Shown piece by piece: positions 1,138 to 17,765 of a DNA stretch of 17,896 nucleotides (positions are counted from its first letter, which is position 1; every line of letters begins with the position of its first letter). The notes below the pieces were generated by a model. That model was not told where the DNA came from and did no database searches. It saw only the letters and a program-made list of their open reading frames with translations. A program made the translations under genes and the position numbers. Source of the stretch: Candidatus Uhrbacteria bacterium. GTDB lineage: Bacteria > Patescibacteriota > Patescibacteriia > JACPHY01. The stretch covers positions 1-17,896 of the forward strand of contig JACPHY010000010.1 in NCBI GenBank assembly GCA_016188355.1, written 5' to 3'.

Positions 1138-2394
1138 TTAGCTGACTATTGTTCCTCGTTTTTTGGTGAGGATGAGCCTTCGACAGTCTCCGCGAATCCG
1201 ATCGCTACTCCAGGGGACTTGGTAGTATTGGGTTGGGAAGTAGACCGGAAAGAAGAGGCGGAGGAGTTGGCGCAGACGATAGCGGAACCAGTTCTCTTCG
1301 CCCCGGGAGTACCAGAGATTCAGGTAGTCGCGGATATGCATGATCTGGACTTCCCACGGACCGCTTTGATCATCGAATTCTCCGTAGAGTTTCATTGCAC
1401 GGAAGTACGAACCAGAAAATCGATTGAGTGCCCGCTGGGAAGTCTTGGTGTAGCGATCGTTCCACCCGGCAGTCCAAAAGCCGAAGCGAGGAAATGTCTT
1501 CGCAAGTGTTTCGTAACAGGTGATGCGATCGTCATGCGACCAGCAGGCGATGCGGATTCCGCGGATATCCTCCACCCATTCCGGGAACGAGATATTATCG
1601 CGGAGCATGTGTAGGATGATGCTGAACGGTGTTTTCACGCGATACTGGATGAGACAATCGATCGCACGTTTGCACGTATCCTGGAATTGACCGACGTCCG
1701 GGAGGGTGATGGATTGCCACCCTGCTTTTGGGGTGAAGGAAACGTCGAGACAGCGGCCTTCCGGGTTCTTCCCTTCCACGTTGGTAAAATTCGCAAATAT
1801 CGTTCGTTCGTTCGGCAGTTGGGTGATCAACTGCTTCTGGAAGAGGTCCTGCACATACGAGTACGCATCGAGGCTCCTCTTGTAGAAGGACGGTGTCGAA
1901 GCCCCCAGATAGCCGCCGTATCGGATGCGGAGGATGAGCATGGCGAGATGATGGAGGCGGCGCGCCTCGAACGATAGGCGCCGCTGCTCCTCGCGATCAG
2001 ATTTCGGCATCATGATCGCAAGGAGTTCATTGAGAGAGCCTGGCGGTTCATGGATTACCGTATTCCGGCGAATGGTCTTCGCGTGTTCCTCCGGAATCCA
2101 TTGTTCGATCTGTTGCGCGAGCATGGTGTGCGCTTCTCCGATGGCACCGCCAATCGCACGTTCGGCATTTTCCTCGGGAGGAATAAATGGGAATGCGCCC
2201 TGCATGAGCCGCAACGCTCCTTCGGGGTGTGCCTGCCGTTCCCGGATGAGCGATTCGAAGAGTCGAATGTTGGTGTAGTCGAATGTGCGATGTTTGCGAA
2301 GCTGCTGGAGTGCACCTTCGTCCATGTCGATTCTGCTTGCGAGCAGCGGGTGCGCCATGGGGTCGCGCGCCAGCCGTCTCCGTGTTTTGGTCAT
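1138..2394 (-). CDS. Hypothetical protein, 418 aa, rich in Trp and Tyr, with no recognisable family.
   Basis: This is a long ORF with non-repetitive, protein-like composition, e.g. ...WSHDDRITCYETLAKTFPRFGFWTAGWNDRYTK...NLWYSRGEENWFRYRL.... A strong SD precedes the start: gacgaGGAGGcgccATG. It has its own terminator and a long upstream leader. The plus-strand ORFs 1219..1614 and 1687..1977 are shadows. Confidence 0.75.
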   Translation of the reverse strand: MTKTRRRLARDPMAHPLLASRIDMDEGALQQLRKHRTFDYTNIRLFESLIRERQAHPEGALRLMQGAFPFIPPEENAERAIGGAIGEAHTMLAQQIEQWIPEEHAKTIRRNTVIHEPPGSLNELLAIMMPKSDREEQRRLSFEARRLHHLAMLILRIRYGGYLGASTPSFYKRSLDAYSYVQDLFQKQLITQLPNERTIFANFTNVEGKNPEGRCLDVSFTPKAGWQSITLPDVGQFQDTCKRAIDCLIQYRVKTPFSIILHMLRDNISFPEWVEDIRGIRIACWSHDDRITCYETLAKTFPRFGFWTAGWNDRYTKTSQRALNRFSGSYFRAMKLYGEFDDQSGPWEVQIMHIRDYLNLWYSRGEENWFRYRLRQLLRLFFPVYFPTQYYQVPWSSDRIRGDCRRLILTKKRGTIVS

Positions 2395-2580: not shown

Positions 2581-2634
2581 ACATACAAAACACGACCCAC
2601 TCGACTGTGTACGAGCGGGTCGTGCCTGTTTTCT
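2581..2634. terminator. Bidirectional intrinsic-terminator-like hairpin.
   Basis: The stem is cacgacccactcg (2591-2603) with loop actgtgta, then cgagcgggtcgtg (2612-2624). That is 13 bp with one mismatch. On the plus strand it is followed by cctgttttct. On the minus strand it is followed by UUUUGUAUGUAUUUGUC. Confidence 0.45.
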
Positions 2635-2917: not shown

Positions 2918-4096
2918 TCATGCTCCTTGCGTGCCAGATCCGGGTGACCATCGCTCCCAGGGGAGTTCCGGATCGCCGAAGTGCCCCCACGTGGCGAGAT
3001 GTTCCCAGCGCATGGCGTGGAGCTGCAGGTCGCGGAAGGTGCCGGCGATGGAGCAGTCGTACCCGGAGAGCCACCGGCGCGCAAATACGGGATCCGCTCG
3101 TTTCCAGGTGAGCGTGTGTGCTGCGGGATCATGCGTGCCAAACTGTATCTCCGACCATCGCGGGTTGGTGTCTCCCGGAGCGTAAGCGAGGTGCACGAGC
3201 GCGCGTTCGGCTACGCCGGCCATGACGAGGTGCTTTGCGATCTGACGCGCGCGCAGCGCGGCGGTGCGATCGATTTTGTGCGGGTCTTTCCCGGAGAGCG
3301 CACCCCCGCCGATTGGTACGTGCGGACCAAATGCGTCCACGACGAGCTTTTTTCCGGAGAGTCCGTTATCGCCTTCCGGCCCGCCGACCGCGAAATCGCC
3401 CGCGCCATTCACGAGGAGCGCGTCCGGATGTTCCTCCCAGGTGAGCGCGGGAATCGACGCGAGCCGCTGCTGGGCCGCTGCGCGGACGCGTTTTACGGCA
3501 TCAATGATGTCGACCGTCCCCACCTTCGGATGATGTTGCACGGAGCAGCTCATTGCTTCGATGTTGCAGCGTGCTTGGTGGCGCGTGCCGTCCCATTCGT
3601 CCCGAGCGACGATGAGTATTTTGCCGTCCGGTCCAAAGAGCTTCGGAGCGCTCCGTCGCTCACGATCGAGTTCCTCCGCGCATACGCGGGCAACTCGGTG
3701 CGCGGTGGGGAGGTAGTGTGTTTCCGGTTGTGCCTCCGCGTACCCGGTGACGATGTTTTGATCATCCGCGAGACGACGAATGTCGCGTTCCTCGGGTCGG
3801 AAATCGCCGAGGCAGAGATCCTGCAGGATGTGGAGGTGCTCGGGATTTGGTCCGAAGGTAGCACCGTATCCGCTCGTCGTGCAGATGCGGCGTGCGATGC
3901 GATCGACATCGATGGATTCCGCGCCCGGGCATGCGATGCGTCCATCGATGAAGACGTGATCGCGATGGACAGCGACCTCAATGCCGACGAGTGCATCGGT
4001 GTCGCGGGTGAGTGCGGCGTCCACAAGTGCGTCCGCAATGCGATCGCTGAGCTTATCGGGGTGTCCCGGGAGAGTGCATTCGGCGAAGGTGCGCAT
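2918..4096 (-). CDS. metK: S-adenosylmethionine synthetase (methionine adenosyltransferase).
   Basis: The N-terminus reads MRTFAECTLPGHPDKLSDRIADALVDAAL, where GHPDK is the MetK hallmark. Further in, ...GGGALSGKDPHKIDRTAALRARQIAKHLV matches the MetK GGGAFSGKDPTKVDRS P-loop. I chose the start at 4096 because GGAGGA lies 4 nt upstream. An in-frame ATG at 4108 (MEDPMRTF) is an alternative. The track ORF extending to 4303 (MASAPHH..., rich in P/R/T) is an unlikely N-terminal extension. The plus-strand ORF 2981..4243 is a shadow. Confidence 0.9.
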   Translation of the reverse strand: MRTFAECTLPGHPDKLSDRIADALVDAALTRDTDALVGIEVAVHRDHVFIDGRIACPGAESIDVDRIARRICTTSGYGATFGPNPEHLHILQDLCLGDFRPEERDIRRLADDQNIVTGYAEAQPETHYLPTAHRVARVCAEELDRERRSAPKLFGPDGKILIVARDEWDGTRHQARCNIEAMSCSVQHHPKVGTVDIIDAVKRVRAAAQQRLASIPALTWEEHPDALLVNGAGDFAVGGPEGDNGLSGKKLVVDAFGPHVPIGGGALSGKDPHKIDRTAALRARQIAKHLVMAGVAERALVHLAYAPGDTNPRWSEIQFGTHDPAAHTLTWKRADPVFARRWLSGYDCSIAGTFRDLQLHAMRWEHLATWGHFGDPELPWERWSPGSGTQGA

Positions 4097-4112
4097 GGGG
4101 TCCTCCATTCGA

Positions 4113-4179: not shown

Positions 4180-5568
4180 TCATGGGGCAAGGAGCGGTAG
4201 TTCGGTGAGTTCCTCTGCGATAGGTTGGAGGTCGGGGAGATAACCGTTCGGGGTGAGTGCGACGCGGATTCGGAGTTTCGCGGTGATGAGGCGCGCTCGC
4301 CATTCGCGGGTGGGTGGGCCGACGTATCCATCTGTCATGATGAGGATTTTTTGGAATCCCTCCTGGAGCGCGTGCTCCCAGATGCAGACGGCATCGGTAC
4401 CGCTGGTGGACGCGCAGGTGCCGGCGGCGAGCTGCGCGGTGGTCATCTCGTGGATTTGCTCACTGAAGGCAAACAGACGCGCGCGACGTTGCTGCACGTA
4501 CGGATGGACGAGTCCAGCAAAGAGGTTCCAGTACGGTCGTGTGCTGCCGCTCACGTCGATGTAGATCGAAGTGATGCCGCGGGCGTCCGTGATCTGTTGC
4601 GCGGGAATGACATTGCGGAAGATGAGCGGCGACCAACCGCCGGCGCTAGCAACCAGTGCGCGGCGATCGCGGAGCGTGGGAATGGGGGCCTCGATGGAGC
4701 GATCCGTGCATGCGCGATGGCGATGGGTTACCGCCCCCTTCACCTGCGCTTCCGCCATGGTGCGGAGCATCCGTCGGAGCACCTGCTGTGCACTCAGGGG
4801 GACGGGCGTGCGTTCGAGGAGGATGTCGCGAATGTCGCCCCCCACACTGCGTCCGCGAATGGGATCGGGTGGCATGGGCCATTTTTCCACAATCGATCGC
4901 ACCATGCCGTTCAGGAGGGGATGATGGGAGGCGGATTCCCCGCGACCTTCCGTATCTTCCGGGGAGTGATCTCCTAGGAGCACGGGCATCCTCGCTTCTT
5001 TTCCGATGCATTCGCGTAGCTGCGGGTCCTCCTGGAACAGCCGATAGACTTCGTCGTAGGTGCCGCTTGCTTCGGAGTAGAGGGTGCGGATCATGTGTTG
5101 CACGGGACGGGGGAGCGTTTTGGGAATCTGTATCTTTTTCGGCCATCCGGGTGGCGGACGGAGGAGCGCGGCGGGGAATTGATCTGCAGCGGAGAATTGG
5201 GTGAGAAAGGACGTGTAGATCGGTTCCGGGAAGAGCCGTGCCAGGATCGCATTAATGATTGCATCGAACACGATATTGTCGACCGGCGTCATGCGCGGGA
5301 AGAGTCGCGTGTGTCCGAGGAGGACATGGTGCAGTTCATGCATGACGAGCATGAAGAGATGCTCATCGGTTTTGCAGTATGCCGCGATGAAGTCCGGATT
5401 CAGGAGGAGCTTCGGCGCGGAAAGGCACTCCACGGCTGCACTGGGCACCGTCCACGATTCCACTACGTCGGTGAGCCGGAGGAAGGTATCGAGGGCGTAG
5501 TGTCCCGCAGGAAACGCCGAGAGTATCCGATGTCGGAGTGCATCGCTCGCGCGGCGATCCGCCATCAT
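4180..5568 (-). CDS. Fusion protein with an N-terminal HExxH zinc-metallopeptidase-like domain and a C-terminal von Willebrand A (VWA) domain. This is the DUF2201_N + DUF2201 architecture, the usual partner of MoxR/CbbQ-type AAA+ ATPases.
   Basis: The N-terminal half contains ...YCKTDEHLFMLVMHELHHVLLGHTRLF..., with HELHH as the HExxH motif. The C-terminal half contains ...ITSIYIDVSGSTRPYW... (a DxSxS MIDAS motif) and later ...STSGTD... and ...ILIMTDGYVG..., the VWA beta-strand motifs. The start MMADRR at 5568 overlaps the TGA of the upstream gene as ATGA, and GGAG lies 9 nt upstream. The 126 codons of the track ORF (4180..5946) upstream of this start are not used. ORF 5095..5934(+) and the ORFs at 4225-5204(+) are shadows. 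Confidence 0.8.
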   Translation of the reverse strand: MMADRRASDALRHRILSAFPAGHYALDTFLRLTDVVESWTVPSAAVECLSAPKLLLNPDFIAAYCKTDEHLFMLVMHELHHVLLGHTRLFPRMTPVDNIVFDAIINAILARLFPEPIYTSFLTQFSAADQFPAALLRPPPGWPKKIQIPKTLPRPVQHMIRTLYSEASGTYDEVYRLFQEDPQLRECIGKEARMPVLLGDHSPEDTEGRGESASHHPLLNGMVRSIVEKWPMPPDPIRGRSVGGDIRDILLERTPVPLSAQQVLRRMLRTMAEAQVKGAVTHRHRACTDRSIEAPIPTLRDRRALVASAGGWSPLIFRNVIPAQQITDARGITSIYIDVSGSTRPYWNLFAGLVHPYVQQRRARLFAFSEQIHEMTTAQLAAGTCASTSGTDAVCIWEHALQEGFQKILIMTDGYVGPPTREWRARLITAKLRIRVALTPNGYLPDLQPIAEELTELPLLAP

Positions 5569-6092
5569 GGCAGGATCTCCGCGAGCGCGACGATGCGCGG
5601 ATCGAAGGTAACGAGCTCGCGGAGCAGGAGCTCTGGCGTCACGTTGGGTGTTTTCGATGCGATGAACAGGCGGTCGGATGTTTTTGCGAGGATTGCGAGG
5701 GTGAGGGGGAGATCGCGGATGCGTCCCCAGCGAAAGGGGCGATTTAGGTTTTCTCGTATGACGGATCCCTGCTCTTGGAATATGATGCATCCCACGAATC
5801 GTTGCGCACAGATAGTGGCGTCGGCAATGGCGCAGAGGGCTTCGGCGTCGTCTTGCGCTGCGGAGACGTGTTTGGCGACCAGACTCCGGAGGCCTCGACA
5901 TACCGTATTCGGATGTCGCGTCATGATGATGTGATTCGCATTGCACGCTTCCTTCAGTGAGACGCGCACGGCGGTACGTCCCCGTACCGCGGCACCCGAT
6001 GCGGTAGTTTTCGAGGGCAGCGGCTTGACGGTGACGGTCGATCTCGACGCGCCGCTCATGTTGTGGGCGAGCGATTGTGTATCGGCGGTCAT
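5565..6092 (-). CDS. Hypothetical 175-aa protein with a Ser/Thr/Ala-rich disordered N-terminus followed by a globular domain of about 120 aa. It is an inserted middle gene of the AAA+/VWA module.
   Basis: The start ATG at 6092..6090 overlaps the TGA of the AAA gene at 6091..6089 as ATGA. Its own TGA at 5567..5565 overlaps the next ATG at 5568..5566, again as ATGA. The sequence is MTADTQSLAHNMSGASRSTVTVKPLPSKTTASGAAVRGRTAVRVSLKEA...CRGLRSLVAKHV...ELLLRELVTFDPRIVALAEILP. I treat the 16 upstream codons in the track ORF (to 6140) as non-coding overlap with the AAA gene. Confidence 0.6.
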   Translation of the reverse strand: MTADTQSLAHNMSGASRSTVTVKPLPSKTTASGAAVRGRTAVRVSLKEACNANHIIMTRHPNTVCRGLRSLVAKHVSAAQDDAEALCAIADATICAQRFVGCIIFQEQGSVIRENLNRPFRWGRIRDLPLTLAILAKTSDRLFIASKTPNVTPELLLRELVTFDPRIVALAEILP

Positions 6093-12901: not shown

Positions 12902-13996
12902 ATGCTACGGTTTCCCGATATGTTCTCCAGGAATACCACACGCCGCACAACCTCGCGAATCCCGCTTCCGACCGATGCGGTGGTTGCGGTGACGTATCTC
13001 TGTAATTCGCGGTGCACCATGTGTGACTTTTGGAAGGAGACGCGGCAGCCGACGATGACGGTCGAGGACTATCGCAAGCTCCCTCCAACACTCCGCGATA
13101 TCAATGTGAGTGGCGGTGAGCCGTTTCTCCATCCCCAGATCGTTGCGATCGTACGCGCACTCCACGAAACCTGCCCGAAGGCGCGCATCACGATTTCAAC
13201 GAATGGGTTTTTGACCGATCTCATCTGCAAGCGCACGCGCGATATCCTCGAATTTCTTCCGGACATCGGCATCCGCATTTCCATTGATGGCGTAGGGGAC
13301 ATGCACGAGCGCATCCGCCGGATCCCGCAGGCGCTCCAGAAAGATCTCGCCACCCTCCGCGGGCTCCGTGCGATCGGCGTGCGGGATATCGGATTTGGAT
13401 ACACGATGACGGAGGAAAATGTAGAGCACTGCACGAAGGTCTACGCGCTCGCGCAACAGGAGCGTGTGGATTGCACCTGGGCAGTGGCGCAGAGCTCGGA
13501 TTTTTATTTTGGCGGTAAGCAAATTGAACGCCGCGTGGATCCGGCGGTCGTTGCCCGAGAATTTGATGTGCTCATGGAAGCGGAGCTTCGGCGATGGCGA
13601 CCGAAGTCGTGGGTGCGCGCGTATTTCGCCTATGGATTGCGGCGACTGGCGCTCGACGGCGTGCAGGTGCTGCCATCGCGAGCGGGAACGGACTTCTTCT
13701 TTTTGGATCCATTTGGCAACGTATATCCTTCGGTCGTGCATCCATCAGTCATGGGTAATTGTGCCGCGGCGACATCGTTTTCGGATCTCTGGACGAGCAC
13801 AGCGGCAGCGCATGCGCGGCGCGTGGTGGCGGCGTGGGACCGCCCCTATTGGATGGTCTGCACGGCGCGTACCGCCATTCGACGCAATCTGCCGCGTGTC
13901 GCGCGATGGGTGCTGGTGCAGCAGTTGCGTCTTTTGCCGCAGCGGCTCACGGGGCATCGTTCTCTGTCGGTACCGACGGCAGCAGCTACTCCATGA
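12902..13996 (+). CDS. Radical SAM domain protein.
   Basis: ...AVVAVTYLCNSRCTMCDFWK... carries the CxxxCxxC [4Fe-4S] motif. ...DINVSGGEPFLHPQ... is the glycine-rich SAM-binding motif. ...ITISTNGFL... and ...IRISIDG... are also present. The start is uncertain. I chose the ATG at 12902 (MLRFPDMF), the first ATG after the upstream stop, but it has no clear SD. The track ORF begins at 12641, overlapping the previous gene. No full SPASM Cys cluster is present. Confidence 0.8.
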   Translation: MLRFPDMFSRNTTRRTTSRIPLPTDAVVAVTYLCNSRCTMCDFWKETRQPTMTVEDYRKLPPTLRDINVSGGEPFLHPQIVAIVRALHETCPKARITISTNGFLTDLICKRTRDILEFLPDIGIRISIDGVGDMHERIRRIPQALQKDLATLRGLRAIGVRDIGFGYTMTEENVEHCTKVYALAQQERVDCTWAVAQSSDFYFGGKQIERRVDPAVVAREFDVLMEAELRRWRPKSWVRAYFAYGLRRLALDGVQVLPSRAGTDFFFLDPFGNVYPSVVHPSVMGNCAAATSFSDLWTSTAAAHARRVVAAWDRPYWMVCTARTAIRRNLPRVARWVLVQQLRLLPQRLTGHRSLSVPTAAATP

Positions 13997-15414
13997 CGCG
14001 TCATCCAAAAATTACGACAGCGATCATGGCGATTGCTCCGGCCCTCCTCGCGGGGGTAGCGGCTGCATTGGTTCCTGCCATTCCCGTATTCGTCGGATGG
14101 GGGATTGTGGTGGCATTCGCGTTGCTCTGCTGGCGCCCCATGATTGGCATGGTGCTCATAGTGCTCACGTATCCATTCCTCGCATATGAGATTCCCGTGG
14201 GACCGCTCCACATCCCCCCGGTCGATTTGGTGGCGCTGGCGACCGCGGTGGCGGTGAGCGTCCGTTTTGTATGGAGCTGGTCGCGGACTGGTATTCGTCC
14301 AATGGTCGAGTTGCCTCCGGGCGCACTGGCCTTCGGCATGCTCACTGTGGTGGGCATGTTGTCGTTGGTGCATACGGATAATTTTTTCGGCAGCGCAAAA
14401 TTCCTCGCGCGGCCGATCATGTTCGGATATCTCATGTTCCTGGTGTTGCCACTGCACCTTTTGGATGCTCCGCAGCGTCTCTTCCGAGTATTCCGTGCGA
14501 TGGGGGTGATTGGGGTGGTGGCTGCGGCGATGGGAACGTGGTCCCTCGTGCTCCCCGTGGAACCCGGCGCCCTGCGCCGCGCGGTCCCCGTGGCGATTGC
14601 GGGTATTGCGCCGCTGGGGACGAACCATAACCTTCTTGCGGAAGTACTGGTGAGCGTAGCCCCCGTGGGAATTGCGCTCGCGACGTTGGCCTCCGGAACG
14701 ATGCGGCGATGGATGTGGGCCGGCACGGCGTGGTGCGTGGTGATTGCGCTGGCAACGTTTTCGCGGAATGCATGGCTGGCGCTGGCCGTGGAAGGCGTGG
14801 TGCTGCTCGCCGCATATGCGCACGCGCATGGCATCGCGTGGCGCCGCGTCCTCGGTGGCATGGGCGTGCTCGTGCTCATGGCAACCATGGCGGTCGGCGT
14901 GCTTTCGGCGACGGGTGTGGCGCAGAGTTCGAATCGTAATCGGTTGCAGTTGATGACGATCGCGTTCGAGCAATTCCGAGCGCATCCATGGATTGGTGGC
15001 GGCACGGGTACGTTCCTGGATGCGGTTCGGCGTGATCGGTGGTACATGGCGGATTTTGGGCGACCACTGGATGCGCATGGATTCGTACCGAAGTTGCTCG
15101 CAGAAACCGGCATGCTGGGGCTCGCGGCGTACAGTGGACTGCTCGGCGCGGTGCTGTATACGATCGCGCGTGCCTCGCTCCGCGTGGTGCATGCACCGCG
15201 CTGGCGTCTGATGGTGCTCGCGTTGCTCGCGAGTGCGGTGGGGAGCGTCGCGTTCCAGTTATTCAATACGTCGTATTTTGTCGCGAAGCTCTGGCTCCCC
15301 CTAGGCATTGCCGTGGCGACGGCGCGACTCGCGCAGCGGAGTGCGGGGCCTATGCCGTCACGATCATCCGAGCGGATCGAGCATCCTCATTTGCTGCGGC
15401 AATTGCTATCATAA
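13993..15414 (+). CDS. O-antigen ligase/polymerase-like (Wzy/WaaL-type) polytopic membrane protein.
   Basis: The ATG at 13993 overlaps the rSAM TGA as ATGA. The protein is 473 aa and highly hydrophobic, with at least 10 predicted TM segments, e.g. AIMAIAPALLAGVAAALVPAIPVFVGWGIVVAFALL and ...FSRNAWLALAVEGVVLLAAYA.... It has a large periplasmic-loop region. The antisense ORFs 13846..15192 and 14001..15308 are shadows. Confidence 0.75.
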   Translation: MTRHPKITTAIMAIAPALLAGVAAALVPAIPVFVGWGIVVAFALLCWRPMIGMVLIVLTYPFLAYEIPVGPLHIPPVDLVALATAVAVSVRFVWSWSRTGIRPMVELPPGALAFGMLTVVGMLSLVHTDNFFGSAKFLARPIMFGYLMFLVLPLHLLDAPQRLFRVFRAMGVIGVVAAAMGTWSLVLPVEPGALRRAVPVAIAGIAPLGTNHNLLAEVLVSVAPVGIALATLASGTMRRWMWAGTAWCVVIALATFSRNAWLALAVEGVVLLAAYAHAHGIAWRRVLGGMGVLVLMATMAVGVLSATGVAQSSNRNRLQLMTIAFEQFRAHPWIGGGTGTFLDAVRRDRWYMADFGRPLDAHGFVPKLLAETGMLGLAAYSGLLGAVLYTIARASLRVVHAPRWRLMVLALLASAVGSVAFQLFNTSYFVAKLWLPLGIAVATARLAQRSAGPMPSRSSERIEHPHLLRQLLS

Positions 15415-15418
15415 CCAC

Positions 15419-16507
15419 ATGCTCCGCGTGACGTTCATCGGTACGTCCTTTGCGATTGGTGGCGCCGAACAGCTCCAACTTGAGCTGGCACGGCGGTTAC
15501 CCCGCGATCGTTTTTCCGTGGAGGTGGTGGCGGTAGTGCGGGGAGGGCCGCTGGAGGAGGAGTTTCGTGCGCTCGGCATCCCGACCACAGTCATCGGGAA
15601 GACGACCAAGTGGGGATGGAGTACGATCGAGCAGTTGCGCGCGCACCTGGTGGCGCAGCAGCCGGATGTCGTCCACACCCATCTCTTTGGTGGAGATACA
15701 TGGGGACGCGTTGCGGCGATTCGCGCGGGGGTGCGGTGCATCGTTTCGACAGAGCACAATATTAACGTGGATGAGGGAATCGGGAAGCGGTTCGTGAAGC
15801 GGGTGCTTGCCCGGTACACCACACGCATTGTTGCGGTTTCCGATGCGGTGCGGGTGGCGAGTATGCGTCGCGACGGCATTCCGTCGCGGCTGCTGACCGT
15901 GATACCTAATGGCGTGGATACGGAACAGTTTCGGCCTGCGCCCGCGTCCGCGCATGCGACCGTGCAATTGCTCACAGTGGGGCGACTTGTCCCACAAAAG
16001 GGTCACGACGTACTGATGGATGCGATGGCGATCCTTCGGGATGAGCTGCCGCACGTGGTGCTGGATGTGGTGGGTGATGGTCCGCGTCGCGCAGCACTCG
16101 AATCGCATGTGCGCGCATATGGATTGGCGGAGCGCGTGCGTTTTTTGGGCATGCGCCGCGATTTGCCGGACCAATATCATCGAGCGGATATTGCCGTATT
16201 CCCATCGCGTTGGGAAGGATTTGGTATTGCAGCGGCAGAGGCGATGTCCTGTGGTATTCCCGTCATTGCGACGCGCGTGGATGGGCTTGCCGAGGTGGTG
16301 GTTCCGGACGTGACTGGATTGCTTGTTCCTGCAAATGATCCGGTGGCGCTCGCACAAGCGATTCGTGCGCTTGCGCAGGATCGCGCACGTCGACTGTTGT
16401 TGGGTGCCGCCGGACGTCGTCGTGTGCTCGAGTGTTTTGATATTCGCAATGTCGTACGTCGGTACGGGGAGTTCTATGAAGCAGCTGCGCGTGCTCCTCG
16501 TCAATAA
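15419..16507 (+). CDS. GT4-family (GT-B) glycosyltransferase.
   Basis: MLRVTFIGTSFAIGGAEQ... and ...FPSRWEGFGIAAAEAMSCGIPVIATRVDGLAEVV... carry the EX7E-type GT4 signature. The start lies 4 nt after the upstream stop. ORF 15497..16825(-) is a shadow. Confidence 0.85.
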   Translation: MLRVTFIGTSFAIGGAEQLQLELARRLPRDRFSVEVVAVVRGGPLEEEFRALGIPTTVIGKTTKWGWSTIEQLRAHLVAQQPDVVHTHLFGGDTWGRVAAIRAGVRCIVSTEHNINVDEGIGKRFVKRVLARYTTRIVAVSDAVRVASMRRDGIPSRLLTVIPNGVDTEQFRPAPASAHATVQLLTVGRLVPQKGHDVLMDAMAILRDELPHVVLDVVGDGPRRAALESHVRAYGLAERVRFLGMRRDLPDQYHRADIAVFPSRWEGFGIAAAEAMSCGIPVIATRVDGLAEVVVPDVTGLLVPANDPVALAQAIRALAQDRARRLLLGAAGRRRVLECFDIRNVVRRYGEFYEAAARAPRQ

Positions 16508-17765
16508 ATTTTGGTACCCCAAAGGAGGATCGGAGCGGTACACCCTACTGCTGCGGGACATACTCCGTGCGCAGGGGCACGAGGTGGTCCCGTTTGCGAT
16601 GACCGATCCGAAAAATCTTCCCACGCAATGGGCGGAATATTTTGCGCCGTCGGTGGATTGGGGGGATGGGAGTGCTCGGGCATCCTCGCCATCGCACGCA
16701 TGGACGAGTTTGACACGTGTGCTCTGGAACCGCGCCGCCGCCGCTGCATTGGATCGACTCCTGCAGCGGGTGCGTCCGGATGTTGCCCATCTACAGAATT
16801 TTGCGCACCAACTCTCCCCCTCCATTCTTCCCGTGCTCGCGCGGCACGGGGTTCCGATTGTTTGGACCTTGCACGACTACAAGTTGCTCTGCCCGAACTA
16901 TCGTCTGTACACCCAGGGCGCTCCGTGTGAACGGTGTCAGGGGCATTCGTATTGGAATGCGGTGCGGTACAACTGCATGGGGCGGCGTAGTGCGAGTGTG
17001 GCGGTCGCGGCGGAAATGTACCTCCATCATGCGTTGACGAATGTGTATGGGAAGCACATCGCTGCGGTGATTGCGCCGAGCGCATTCCTCGCGGATCGGC
17101 TCCAGGAGTGGGGATGGCGAGGGCGAATCGAGGTGGTGCCGAATTGCATTGAATCACTTCCTGTACCGGACAGAGTAATCTCGGCGCGTGATCGGGTTGG
17201 TGTGTTGTTTGTGGGTCGATTGGTGGAGGAGAAAGGGGTAGGGGATTTCCTGGAAGCGGTGCGGCGACTGCCGGAGATTCCGTTTGTGGTGATCGGGGAT
17301 GGTTCGCTCGGCGCAGAGATGCGGAAGGCGGTCGCGACCTGCGTGAACCTCACGTGGCACGGTGCACAATCTCCCGATCAGATGCGCGCACACTACGAGC
17401 GTGCTCGGGTGCTCGTCGTACCGTCGCGATGGTATGAGAATGCACCATACGTGGTCCTCGAAGCGATGCGGGCGGGGACTCCGGTGATCGCGACGCGCAT
17501 GGGGGGACTTCCGGAGCTCGTTCACGATGGCGAAACGGGCGTACTGGTACCGCCGCGGAATCCGGTTGCGCTCGCGCATGCTATTGCGGCGCTCGTCGCC
17601 GATGAGGGGCGCTGCTCCGTATTGGGGGAGCGAGCGCAGCAGCGGGCACGCGCACCATACGACCCTGCATCGCACTACGCACGGATACGCGCGCTCTATC
17701 GGGAGGTGTCGGTCCGCCCCACCATTACAGCAGAGGTACGCGCAGGGAGCGGAGTGGGCTTATAA
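16476..17765 (+). CDS. GT4-family glycosyltransferase with an internal Cys cluster.
   Basis: MKQLRVLLVNKFWYPKGGSERY... and ...VPSRWYENAPYVVLEAMRAGTPVIATRMGGLPELV.... GGGAG lies 4 nt upstream of the ATG. The gene overlaps the previous GT by 32 nt. The Cys cluster is CPNYRLYTQGAPCERCQGHSYWNAVRYNC. Confidence 0.85.
   Translation: MKQLRVLLVNKFWYPKGGSERYTLLLRDILRAQGHEVVPFAMTDPKNLPTQWAEYFAPSVDWGDGSARASSPSHAWTSLTRVLWNRAAAAALDRLLQRVRPDVAHLQNFAHQLSPSILPVLARHGVPIVWTLHDYKLLCPNYRLYTQGAPCERCQGHSYWNAVRYNCMGRRSASVAVAAEMYLHHALTNVYGKHIAAVIAPSAFLADRLQEWGWRGRIEVVPNCIESLPVPDRVISARDRVGVLFVGRLVEEKGVGDFLEAVRRLPEIPFVVIGDGSLGAEMRKAVATCVNLTWHGAQSPDQMRAHYERARVLVVPSRWYENAPYVVLEAMRAGTPVIATRMGGLPELVHDGETGVLVPPRNPVALAHAIAALVADEGRCSVLGERAQQRARAPYDPASHYARIRALYREVSVRPTITAEVRAGSGVGL

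Follow-up and report, generated by a model that had tools for sequence, protein, structure and literature searches.

On the minus strand of a contig from Candidatus Uhrbacteria bacterium (JACPHY010000010.1, assembly GCA_016188355.1; the 17,896 nucleotides analysed here are referred to as the window), a small gene at 5565-6092, encoding 175 amino acids (aa) plus a stop codon, lies between the genes for a MoxR-like AAA+ ATPase and a VWA protein. We found that this gene is a fixed member of a four-gene operon, in the order AAA+, small gene, zincin-VWA and MetK-like gene, and that its product is an obligatory, tail-bearing subunit of this widespread operon type. A first-pass annotation of the same DNA had described the small gene as inserted into a canonical AAA+/VWA pair and had overlooked the MetK-like member. 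As both the position of the small gene and the MetK-like gene that follows are conserved, it does not represent an insertion into an existing pair, and the finding is broader than was then supposed. The position of the gene is obligate, its coupling to the neighbouring genes is conserved, its product combines a folded domain with a tail, and the catalytic motifs of the three partner proteins are intact; its function, discussed further below, is what we infer.

Coding status and architecture of the small protein

Read directly from the sequence, the small gene is joined to both neighbours by ATGA overlaps, as noticed in the first pass. At 6089..6092 (minus strand), the TGA of the AAA+ gene (6091-6089) overlaps the ATG of the small gene (6092-6090), and at 5565..5568 (minus strand) the TGA of the small gene (5567-5565) overlaps the ATG of the VWA gene (5568-5566). 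Each of these two start codons is preceded, 8 nucleotides upstream, by a Shine-Dalgarno-like GGAG, located at 6101-6104 for the small gene and at 5577-5580 for the VWA gene. Because orthologs of the small protein align from the methionine encoded at ATG 6092, this codon is the correct start, and not the upstream GTG at 6140. The protein was identical to the deposited HYV74_03065 in a homology search, and the GC content of the gene at third codon positions (0.69) is similar to that of the neighbouring genes. Moreover, the small gene is under purifying selection: compared with its ortholog in a second Uhrbacteria contig (L001), which has 72% identity to the small protein, nucleotide differences number 24, 16 and 82 at codon positions 1, 2 and 3, respectively, and the differing codons comprise 55 synonymous and 41 non-synonymous ones.

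A long open reading frame (ORF) at this place could in principle be spurious, arising between two genuine genes of GC-rich DNA as an antisense or out-of-frame shadow, as the window has approximately 60% GC, long chance ORFs are numerous in it, and the frame of the VWA gene likewise stays open through the entire small gene. This reading is already refuted by the codon-position bias of the substitutions, which is seen in the small-gene frame, together with the conserved frame and position. In addition, the protein is conserved across phyla down to less than 20% identity, its fold is predicted with confidence, and the VWA orthologs measure 450-480 aa, starting at the overlap despite the open upstream frame, so that we leave practically no probability to a spurious ORF. 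The first-pass annotation had argued for a genuine co-translated component, and had named loss of the frame in related genomes as the sign that would speak to the contrary; the frame, the position and the 4-nucleotide overlaps are kept across at least ten phyla. We are nearly certain that the small ORF is a genuine and integral component of the operon. The open VWA frame nevertheless calls for caution in gene calling, since it allows gene callers to over-extend the VWA gene or to miss the small gene altogether. In one related locus (L009), the deposited annotation omits the small gene, although it is present there (7514-8020, 168 aa) and overlaps the AAA+ gene by ATGA; in GC-rich genomes with a VWA frame that is open on its upstream side, further members of the family have probably been missed.

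As had been suspected, the small protein belongs to no named family. Searches of Pfam, NCBIfam, PADLOC and PHROG returned no match for it, and 27 members of its family compared with Pfam at E-values of up to 1 matched no family either, DUF58 included. Against the PDB, sequence-profile searching gave nothing, and the AlphaFold model found no fold relative. The first homology search with the small protein yielded 8 homologs (33-100% identity), and a profile search of 1.84 billion cluster representatives yielded 34 family proteins of 59-226 aa, mostly 137-190 aa, all of them stand-alone, with no long fusion protein among them. Apparent long ORFs, considered as candidate Rosetta-stone fusions, proved to be open upstream frames in GC-rich DNA and were discarded. 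Overall, the family consists of stand-alone, basic proteins (median isoelectric point 9.6) of approximately 140-230 aa, with homologs still alignable at 13-20% identity.

Structure prediction with AlphaFold reached a predicted local distance difference test score (pLDDT) of 64 with 8 sequences, and of 85.4 with 27 sequences, the latter with a predicted template modelling score of 0.75. In the better model, codons 40-175 (5568..5975, minus strand) form a predicted globular alpha/beta domain of alternating beta and alpha elements, mostly with pLDDT above 90, and residues 1-39 are unstructured, with low pLDDT and approximately 50% Ser, Thr and Ala. The C-terminal globular domain described in the first pass was therefore recovered in the model, with a length of approximately 136 aa instead of 120 aa. 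Likewise, the N-terminus is disordered and rich in Ser, Thr and Ala, as stated then, but it also houses the most conserved motif of the protein, including Asn11.

In fact, the N-terminal tail is the most conserved stretch of the family, though unstructured in the better model. Its linear motif (codons 8-25, 6018..6071, minus strand) reads LAHNMSGASRSTVTVKPL in the window, and the consensus of 85 distinct sequences is LLHN(M)SxPP(K/R)SV(V/I)x(Y/W)xGL. Asn11 is present in 79 of these sequences, Leu9 in 71, His10 in 67 and Met12 in 63; gaps affect 5 of the sequences at positions 8-11, and 3 of them at position 12. Asn11 (6060-6062) is also the sole invariant column in an alignment of 24 sequences, the members of which are 13-40% identical to the window protein. 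The motif lies near the N-terminus, with the Asn at residue 10 in 31 of 77 members, and is followed by a variable linker rich in Gly, Ser and Pro. In the globular domain, the conserved residues are K137, K/R147, P149 and P165, in addition to hydrophobic core positions; position 145 is Arg in 72/85 sequences and Ala in the candidate phyla radiation (CPR) group, the window included. Since the 85-sequence alignment holds no conserved set of His, Asp, Glu or Cys in this domain, the residue pattern suggests that the small protein serves as a module for binding and not for catalysis.

The conserved operon and its partner proteins

A genome scan with a pattern derived from the first small-protein alignment found no relatives in species-representative genomes, and a second alignment was too divergent to yield a search pattern; related loci were therefore reached through the better-conserved VWA partner. 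This partner has at least 750 cluster-level homologs at approximately 40% identity, and 331 relatives in GTDB species-representative genomes, nearly all of them metagenome-assembled. The hosts belong to Verrucomicrobiota, Myxococcota, many Burkholderiales, Alphaproteobacteria, Acidobacteriota, Gemmatimonadota, Planctomycetota, Chloroflexota and Bacilli, and altogether the relatives span at least ten phyla, with genome-reduced CPR bacteria among them. We then scanned the loci of the best 80 of the 331 VWA relatives, together with loci recovered earlier, with hidden Markov models that were iterated once. Where a locus had room, the VWA gene was as a rule directly preceded by a small-family ORF, itself placed after the AAA+ gene; this was so in approximately 88 of 89 such loci, which answers in the affirmative the question, raised in the first pass, of whether orthologous AAA+/VWA pairs carry a gene at this position. 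The AAA+/small junction is a 4-nucleotide overlap in 68/79 loci and the small/VWA junction in 59/89, and the VWA gene is succeeded by a MetK-like gene in 69 of the 70 loci that have room for one. Moreover, the order AAA+, small gene, VWA (462-467 aa) and MetK-like gene was seen in every CPR or related locus recovered, L009 included. The only locus with room and no MetK-like gene downstream of the VWA gene comes from an uncultured betaproteobacterium (L079); as a MetK fragment is found there on the opposite strand (8215-8529), this operon may be decaying or rearranged.

An origin of the operon in mobile elements was also considered and rejected, as tblastn searches with the VWA partner, which covered 72,556 plasmids and 50,697 phage records, gave no match, and 2.9 million IMG/VR contigs gave a single one. 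The MetK matches obtained in phages are ordinary MetK homologs, with 31-34% identity.

Both neighbours of the small gene were correctly recognised in the first pass. The MoxR-type AAA+ ATPase (6089..7714, minus strand, 541 aa) carries Walker A (GPHGTAKS) and Walker B (VFIDE) motifs, and scores 30.8 bits against AAA_5 (PF07728, cut-off 22); its match to bpMoxR (PF20030) is weaker, with 23.6 bits against a cut-off of 27. Its N-terminal extension of approximately 80 aa (7475-7714), which is of low complexity and rich in Thr, Pro, Arg and Lys, is absent from orthologs of 463-479 aa, and the true start of the AAA+ gene may lie further downstream. The zincin-VWA protein (4180..5568, minus strand, 462 aa) has an N-terminal zincin-like domain with an HExxH motif, within HELHHVLLGH at 5311-5340, and a C-terminal VWA domain (VWA_CoxE, PF05762, 27.6 bits, cut-off 26.4) with an intact metal ion-dependent adhesion site (MIDAS), composed of DVSGS at 4543-4557, followed by T and then by TDG. 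In 17 diverse VWA partners, H77, E78, H80, H81, G85 and H86 are invariant, and so are the MIDAS residues D338, S340, S342, T388/T391 and D413. The peptidase site thus looks functional, as does the metal-dependent site for peptide binding.

This HExxH-then-VWA layout is also that of the DUF2201/VWA-like proteins (PF13203 + PF09967) that are paired with AAA_5 proteins, from which the window protein differs in staying below the PF13203 cut-off (DUF2201_N, 17 bits, cut-off 23.2). Three of its relatives (P0070, P0074 and P0127) carry precomputed PF13203 matches, and P0127, which is 40% identical to it and sits in the same type of four-gene operon, bears the NCBI name DUF2201 family putative metallopeptidase. 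Judged by these matches, the VWA partner is a borderline DUF2201 relative; no paper on the function of DUF2201 was found in the full-text literature.

The fourth gene (2918..4108, minus strand) encodes a divergent MetK-like adenosyltransferase, the start of which is probably Met66 or Met70 of a longer ORF, at 4108 or 4096. It scores 206 bits against TIGR01034, below the equivalog cut-off of 309.4, and 11 further copies from the operon reach 135-207 bits. Directly 3' of the operon copy, two Planctomycetota loci (L094 and L068) have a canonical MetK, with 399 and 393 bits, which indicates that the operon copy is a paralog and not the housekeeping enzyme. We aligned 74 operon copies to E. coli MetK, whose numbering and residue roles are used here. 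Residues H14, D16, K17, E42, D118, D163, K165, F230, D238, K245, K265, K269 and D271 are kept, but E55 is replaced by R in 72/74 copies, I102 by C in 70/74 and R244 by K in 71/74, and Q98 is variable. Glu55 is presumably the residue that binds the alpha-amino group of methionine, and Ile102 presumably belongs to the gating loop. The nucleotide and metal (ATP/Mg/triphosphate) chemistry thus appears to be retained and the amino-acid pocket altered, and this combination suggests that the paralog uses a substrate other than free L-methionine.

Known MoxR-VWA systems and candidate roles of the small protein

By sequence-level criteria, the operon fits a MoxR-VWA remodeller. As in CbbQ-CbbO, NorQ-NorD, CoxD-CoxE and RavA-ViaA, a MoxR AAA+ protein with Walker A and B motifs is co-encoded with a MIDAS-bearing VWA protein, and, as in such two-component systems, a presumed client enzyme adjoins (Rubisco, cytochrome c nitric oxide reductase or CO dehydrogenase there, the MetK-like protein here). 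It differs from them in the conserved small gene between the pair, in the N-terminal HExxH zincin of the VWA protein and in the linked enzyme, a MetK paralog, for which we found no report of a role as MoxR client.

The first-pass annotation had regarded the genes of canonical MoxR-VWA pairs as adjacent, which is true only in part and does not extend to DUF58-type operons. In 2006, Snider and Houry reportedly described MRP-type MoxR operons in which a DUF58 gene stands between MoxR and VWA. The present operon resembles these MoxR-DUF58-VWA (Bat/Mxa-like) operons in having a gene at that place, whereas its intervening protein has neither DUF58 nor any other Pfam match and is approximately half the size. 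With a DUF58 match in 0/27 small-family members (Pfam, E up to 1), membership in this group was rejected.

The premise is further qualified by the existence of ternary conflict systems of the vWA-MoxR type (Kaur et al. 2020, PMC7159879), in which the pair is accompanied by an obligatory third protein, the proposed target of restructuring. The present operon is similar to them in this composition and in the sub-cut-off bpMoxR match of its AAA+ protein, but its third protein is a single domain of 140-230 aa plus tail, not a large multidomain sensor or effector, and it lacks VMAP, iSTAND, FtsH, beta-propeller and effector domains. Membership in these systems was therefore rejected as well, as the small protein matches no family and bpMoxR remains below cut-off. 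Kaur et al. make no mention of S-adenosylmethionine (SAM) synthetase or MetK. In the full-text literature we found no report of MoxR/vWA genes linked with SAM synthetase, or of this operon, although most subscription journals were beyond reach and an earlier description is possible. In the literature so searched, neither an obligatory small tail-bearing subunit without fold relative nor a dedicated MetK paralog with remodelled substrate pocket had been described.

The reading we favour, with somewhat less than an even chance of being correct, is that the small protein is a client or adaptor subunit which offers its tail as a handle and links the machine to the MetK-like enzyme. It is suggested by the exposed, conserved peptide on a flexible linker and by the coupling of the gene to both machine genes. 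VWA MIDAS sites capture extended peptides, after which MoxR ATPases remodel the bound protein, and the ternary systems add a third protein that is restructured by the pair (PMC7159879). Moreover, a finger of NorD enters the pore of the NorQ hexamer while the target is engaged through the VWA domain, and in an AAA+ hexamer so plugged by a VWA finger, ATP strains the VWA protein and remodels the bound target (PMC9976466, PMC13036017). By analogy, the four proteins would form a self-contained machine, composed of the MoxR AAA+ protein, the small protein, the zincin(HExxH)-VWA(MIDAS) protein and the MetK-like paralog. The tail would be captured by the VWA/zincin protein or by the AAA+ ring, ATP hydrolysis by the AAA+ hexamer would then remodel, release or license for processing the small protein, and through this step the machine would be connected with the MetK-like enzyme as its client. 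Both the binding site of the tail and the outcome are proposed here by comparison with the better-studied systems. The label of adaptor or substrate-specifier, used in the first pass, seems a reasonable, if tentative, one.

Several points weigh against this proposal. The contact between the small protein and its partners is itself a proposal, and translational coupling is no proof of a physical complex. MIDAS ligands are normally carboxylates, and the core motif of the tail has no conserved acidic residue, with Asp or Glu within the 9 residues before HN in only 75% of members; alternatively, the zincin cleft or the MetK-like enzyme could be the docking site of the tail. In addition, approximately 85 sequences are too few to resolve coevolution.

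A different role for the zincin motif, which is invariant across the partner family, would make the small protein a proteolytic substrate or pro-protein, cleaved at or near its N-terminal motif with the AAA+ protein gating access, so that the globular domain or a short peptide is freed or activated. That the tail with the motif is exposed and unstructured, and that the spacing between motif and Met1 is almost constant, is in agreement with this, and pairs of a zincin and a small precursor are known from vWA-MoxR systems (PMC7159879). The precursors described there diverge fast, though, while the globular domain here is as constrained as the tail, and no cleavage-site logic can be read from the sequence; on balance, we consider a pro-protein unlikely.

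The altered pocket of the MetK-like enzyme, with its catalytic residues kept, raises another alternative, in which the small protein serves that enzyme as a regulatory or pseudo-substrate subunit. Its tail would insert into the amino-acid pocket, through Met12 in most members, and the AAA+/VWA pair would load or strip it. There is an analogy, and no homology, with MAT2A-MAT2B, where a non-catalytic partner regulates a MetK-fold enzyme via a terminal tail; MAT2B has a short-chain dehydrogenase/reductase fold. The frequency of Met at position 12 (63/85 aligned sequences, 3 gapped) and the finding of HN[SITV]G tails together with a Gly at position 98 of MetK would fit such a subunit, but this association is limited to one clade of the VWA tree (14/89 tips) and therefore amounts to a single evolutionary event, for which reason covariation between tail and MetK pocket was discarded as a line of evidence. 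Furthermore, approximately one fifth of members have S, I, T, V, L or Y in place of Met12, which also weakens the idea of peptidyl-Met12 as a universal substrate of the MetK-like enzyme, and the invariant residue is Asn11, not Met. We regard this alternative as quite unlikely. Very unlikely, in our opinion, is that the small protein acts outside the machine, as a basic nucleic-acid binder or operon regulator that is merely co-transcribed. The basic character of the family, and the fact that partner contact is so far proposed, would allow for it; against it stand the fixation of the gene between two specific genes with stop/start overlaps across phyla, the lack of a helix-turn-helix or other DNA-binding family match in Pfam, and the lack of a significant DNA-binding fold match of the AlphaFold model in the PDB.

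We also entertained, as a highly improbable but consequential option, that the four-gene module represents a new protein- or peptide-directed pathway of adenosyl transfer. If so, the MetK-like enzyme would act on the HN(M)S tail to give, for example, a protein-bound sulfonium or adenosylated residue, or else the output would be a non-SAM sulfonium metabolite under the control of the small protein. Loading, release or trimming of the product would fall to the AAA+/VWA-zincin pair.

Genomic surroundings and significance

Upstream of the operon, on the same strand, a gene for a Cys-rich protein (7719..8753, minus strand, 344 aa) with repeated CxxC...CxxC pairs, zinc-ribbon-like and without family match, ends 4 nucleotides before the start of the AAA+ gene. 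It is lineage-specific and outside the conserved four-gene core. At the corresponding place, L001 has unrelated-looking genes of 229 aa, one of them a PNP_UDP_1 phosphorylase. Downstream, between the MetK-like and the RelA-like genes, a 16-bp hairpin followed by a T-run (2588..2627, minus strand, after the MetK-like gene) is a probable terminator of the operon. A strong sigma-70-like promoter (TTGACA-17-TATAGT, 2702-2674, minus strand) lies ahead of the hairpin and a second promoter-like site (2548-2520, minus strand) past it, and the element spanning 2520-2702 may be a terminator or a leader/attenuator; an Rfam scan of the window found no RNA element. A 90-aa ORF at 2391-2663, which extends over this region, is probably no gene. 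The protein encoded next (418 aa, 1138-2394, minus strand) matches RelA/SpoT (PF04607) with 21.5 bits, below the cut-off of 27. In L001, a 417-aa gene (13656-14909) without Pfam record occupies the same position and is followed by a canonical HD/RelA_SpoT/TGS protein.

Further upstream of the operon, also on the minus strand, the window encodes a homolog of the eukaryotic major vault protein (9620-11407, 595 aa), with matches to MVP_shoulder (5e-30), Vault_3 (1.9e-10), Vault_2 and Vault_4 (both weak) and Band_7; a vault homolog is also present in L001 (5009-6781). Likewise common to L001 is a plus-strand cluster at 12641-17765, comprising a radical SAM enzyme, a Wzy_C O-antigen ligase-like protein and two glycosyltransferases of the GT4 family.

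Across loci, the operon flanks vary, and include ribosomal proteins, topoisomerases, gyrase and sometimes methylases, helicases or integrase. In a survey of 145 flanking ORFs, DUF3293 (8) and MerR with a second, classical VWA (4-5) were the only families to recur. The flanks of L012-L091 and of L092 (2881-4871) also hold N-formylglutamate amidohydrolase (3), ADP-ribosylglycohydrolase (2) and Macro (1) genes. Whether the operon is a component of defence islands we judge neither way, as two loci stand beside methylases, helicases or integrase, while the neighbours among the 145 ORFs are mostly unrelated. No system model of PADLOC matched the cassette of AAA+, small, VWA and MetK-like genes, and the only matches obtained were two marginal ones to single proteins.

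Altogether, these results have consequences for genome annotation, in which the small gene is missed at times and the VWA gene may be drawn too long, across the small one. MoxR-VWA machines are common and few of their clients are known; the operon described here is a distinct and strictly conserved four-gene version of such a machine, and its small protein offers an experimental handle on what the machine acts upon.

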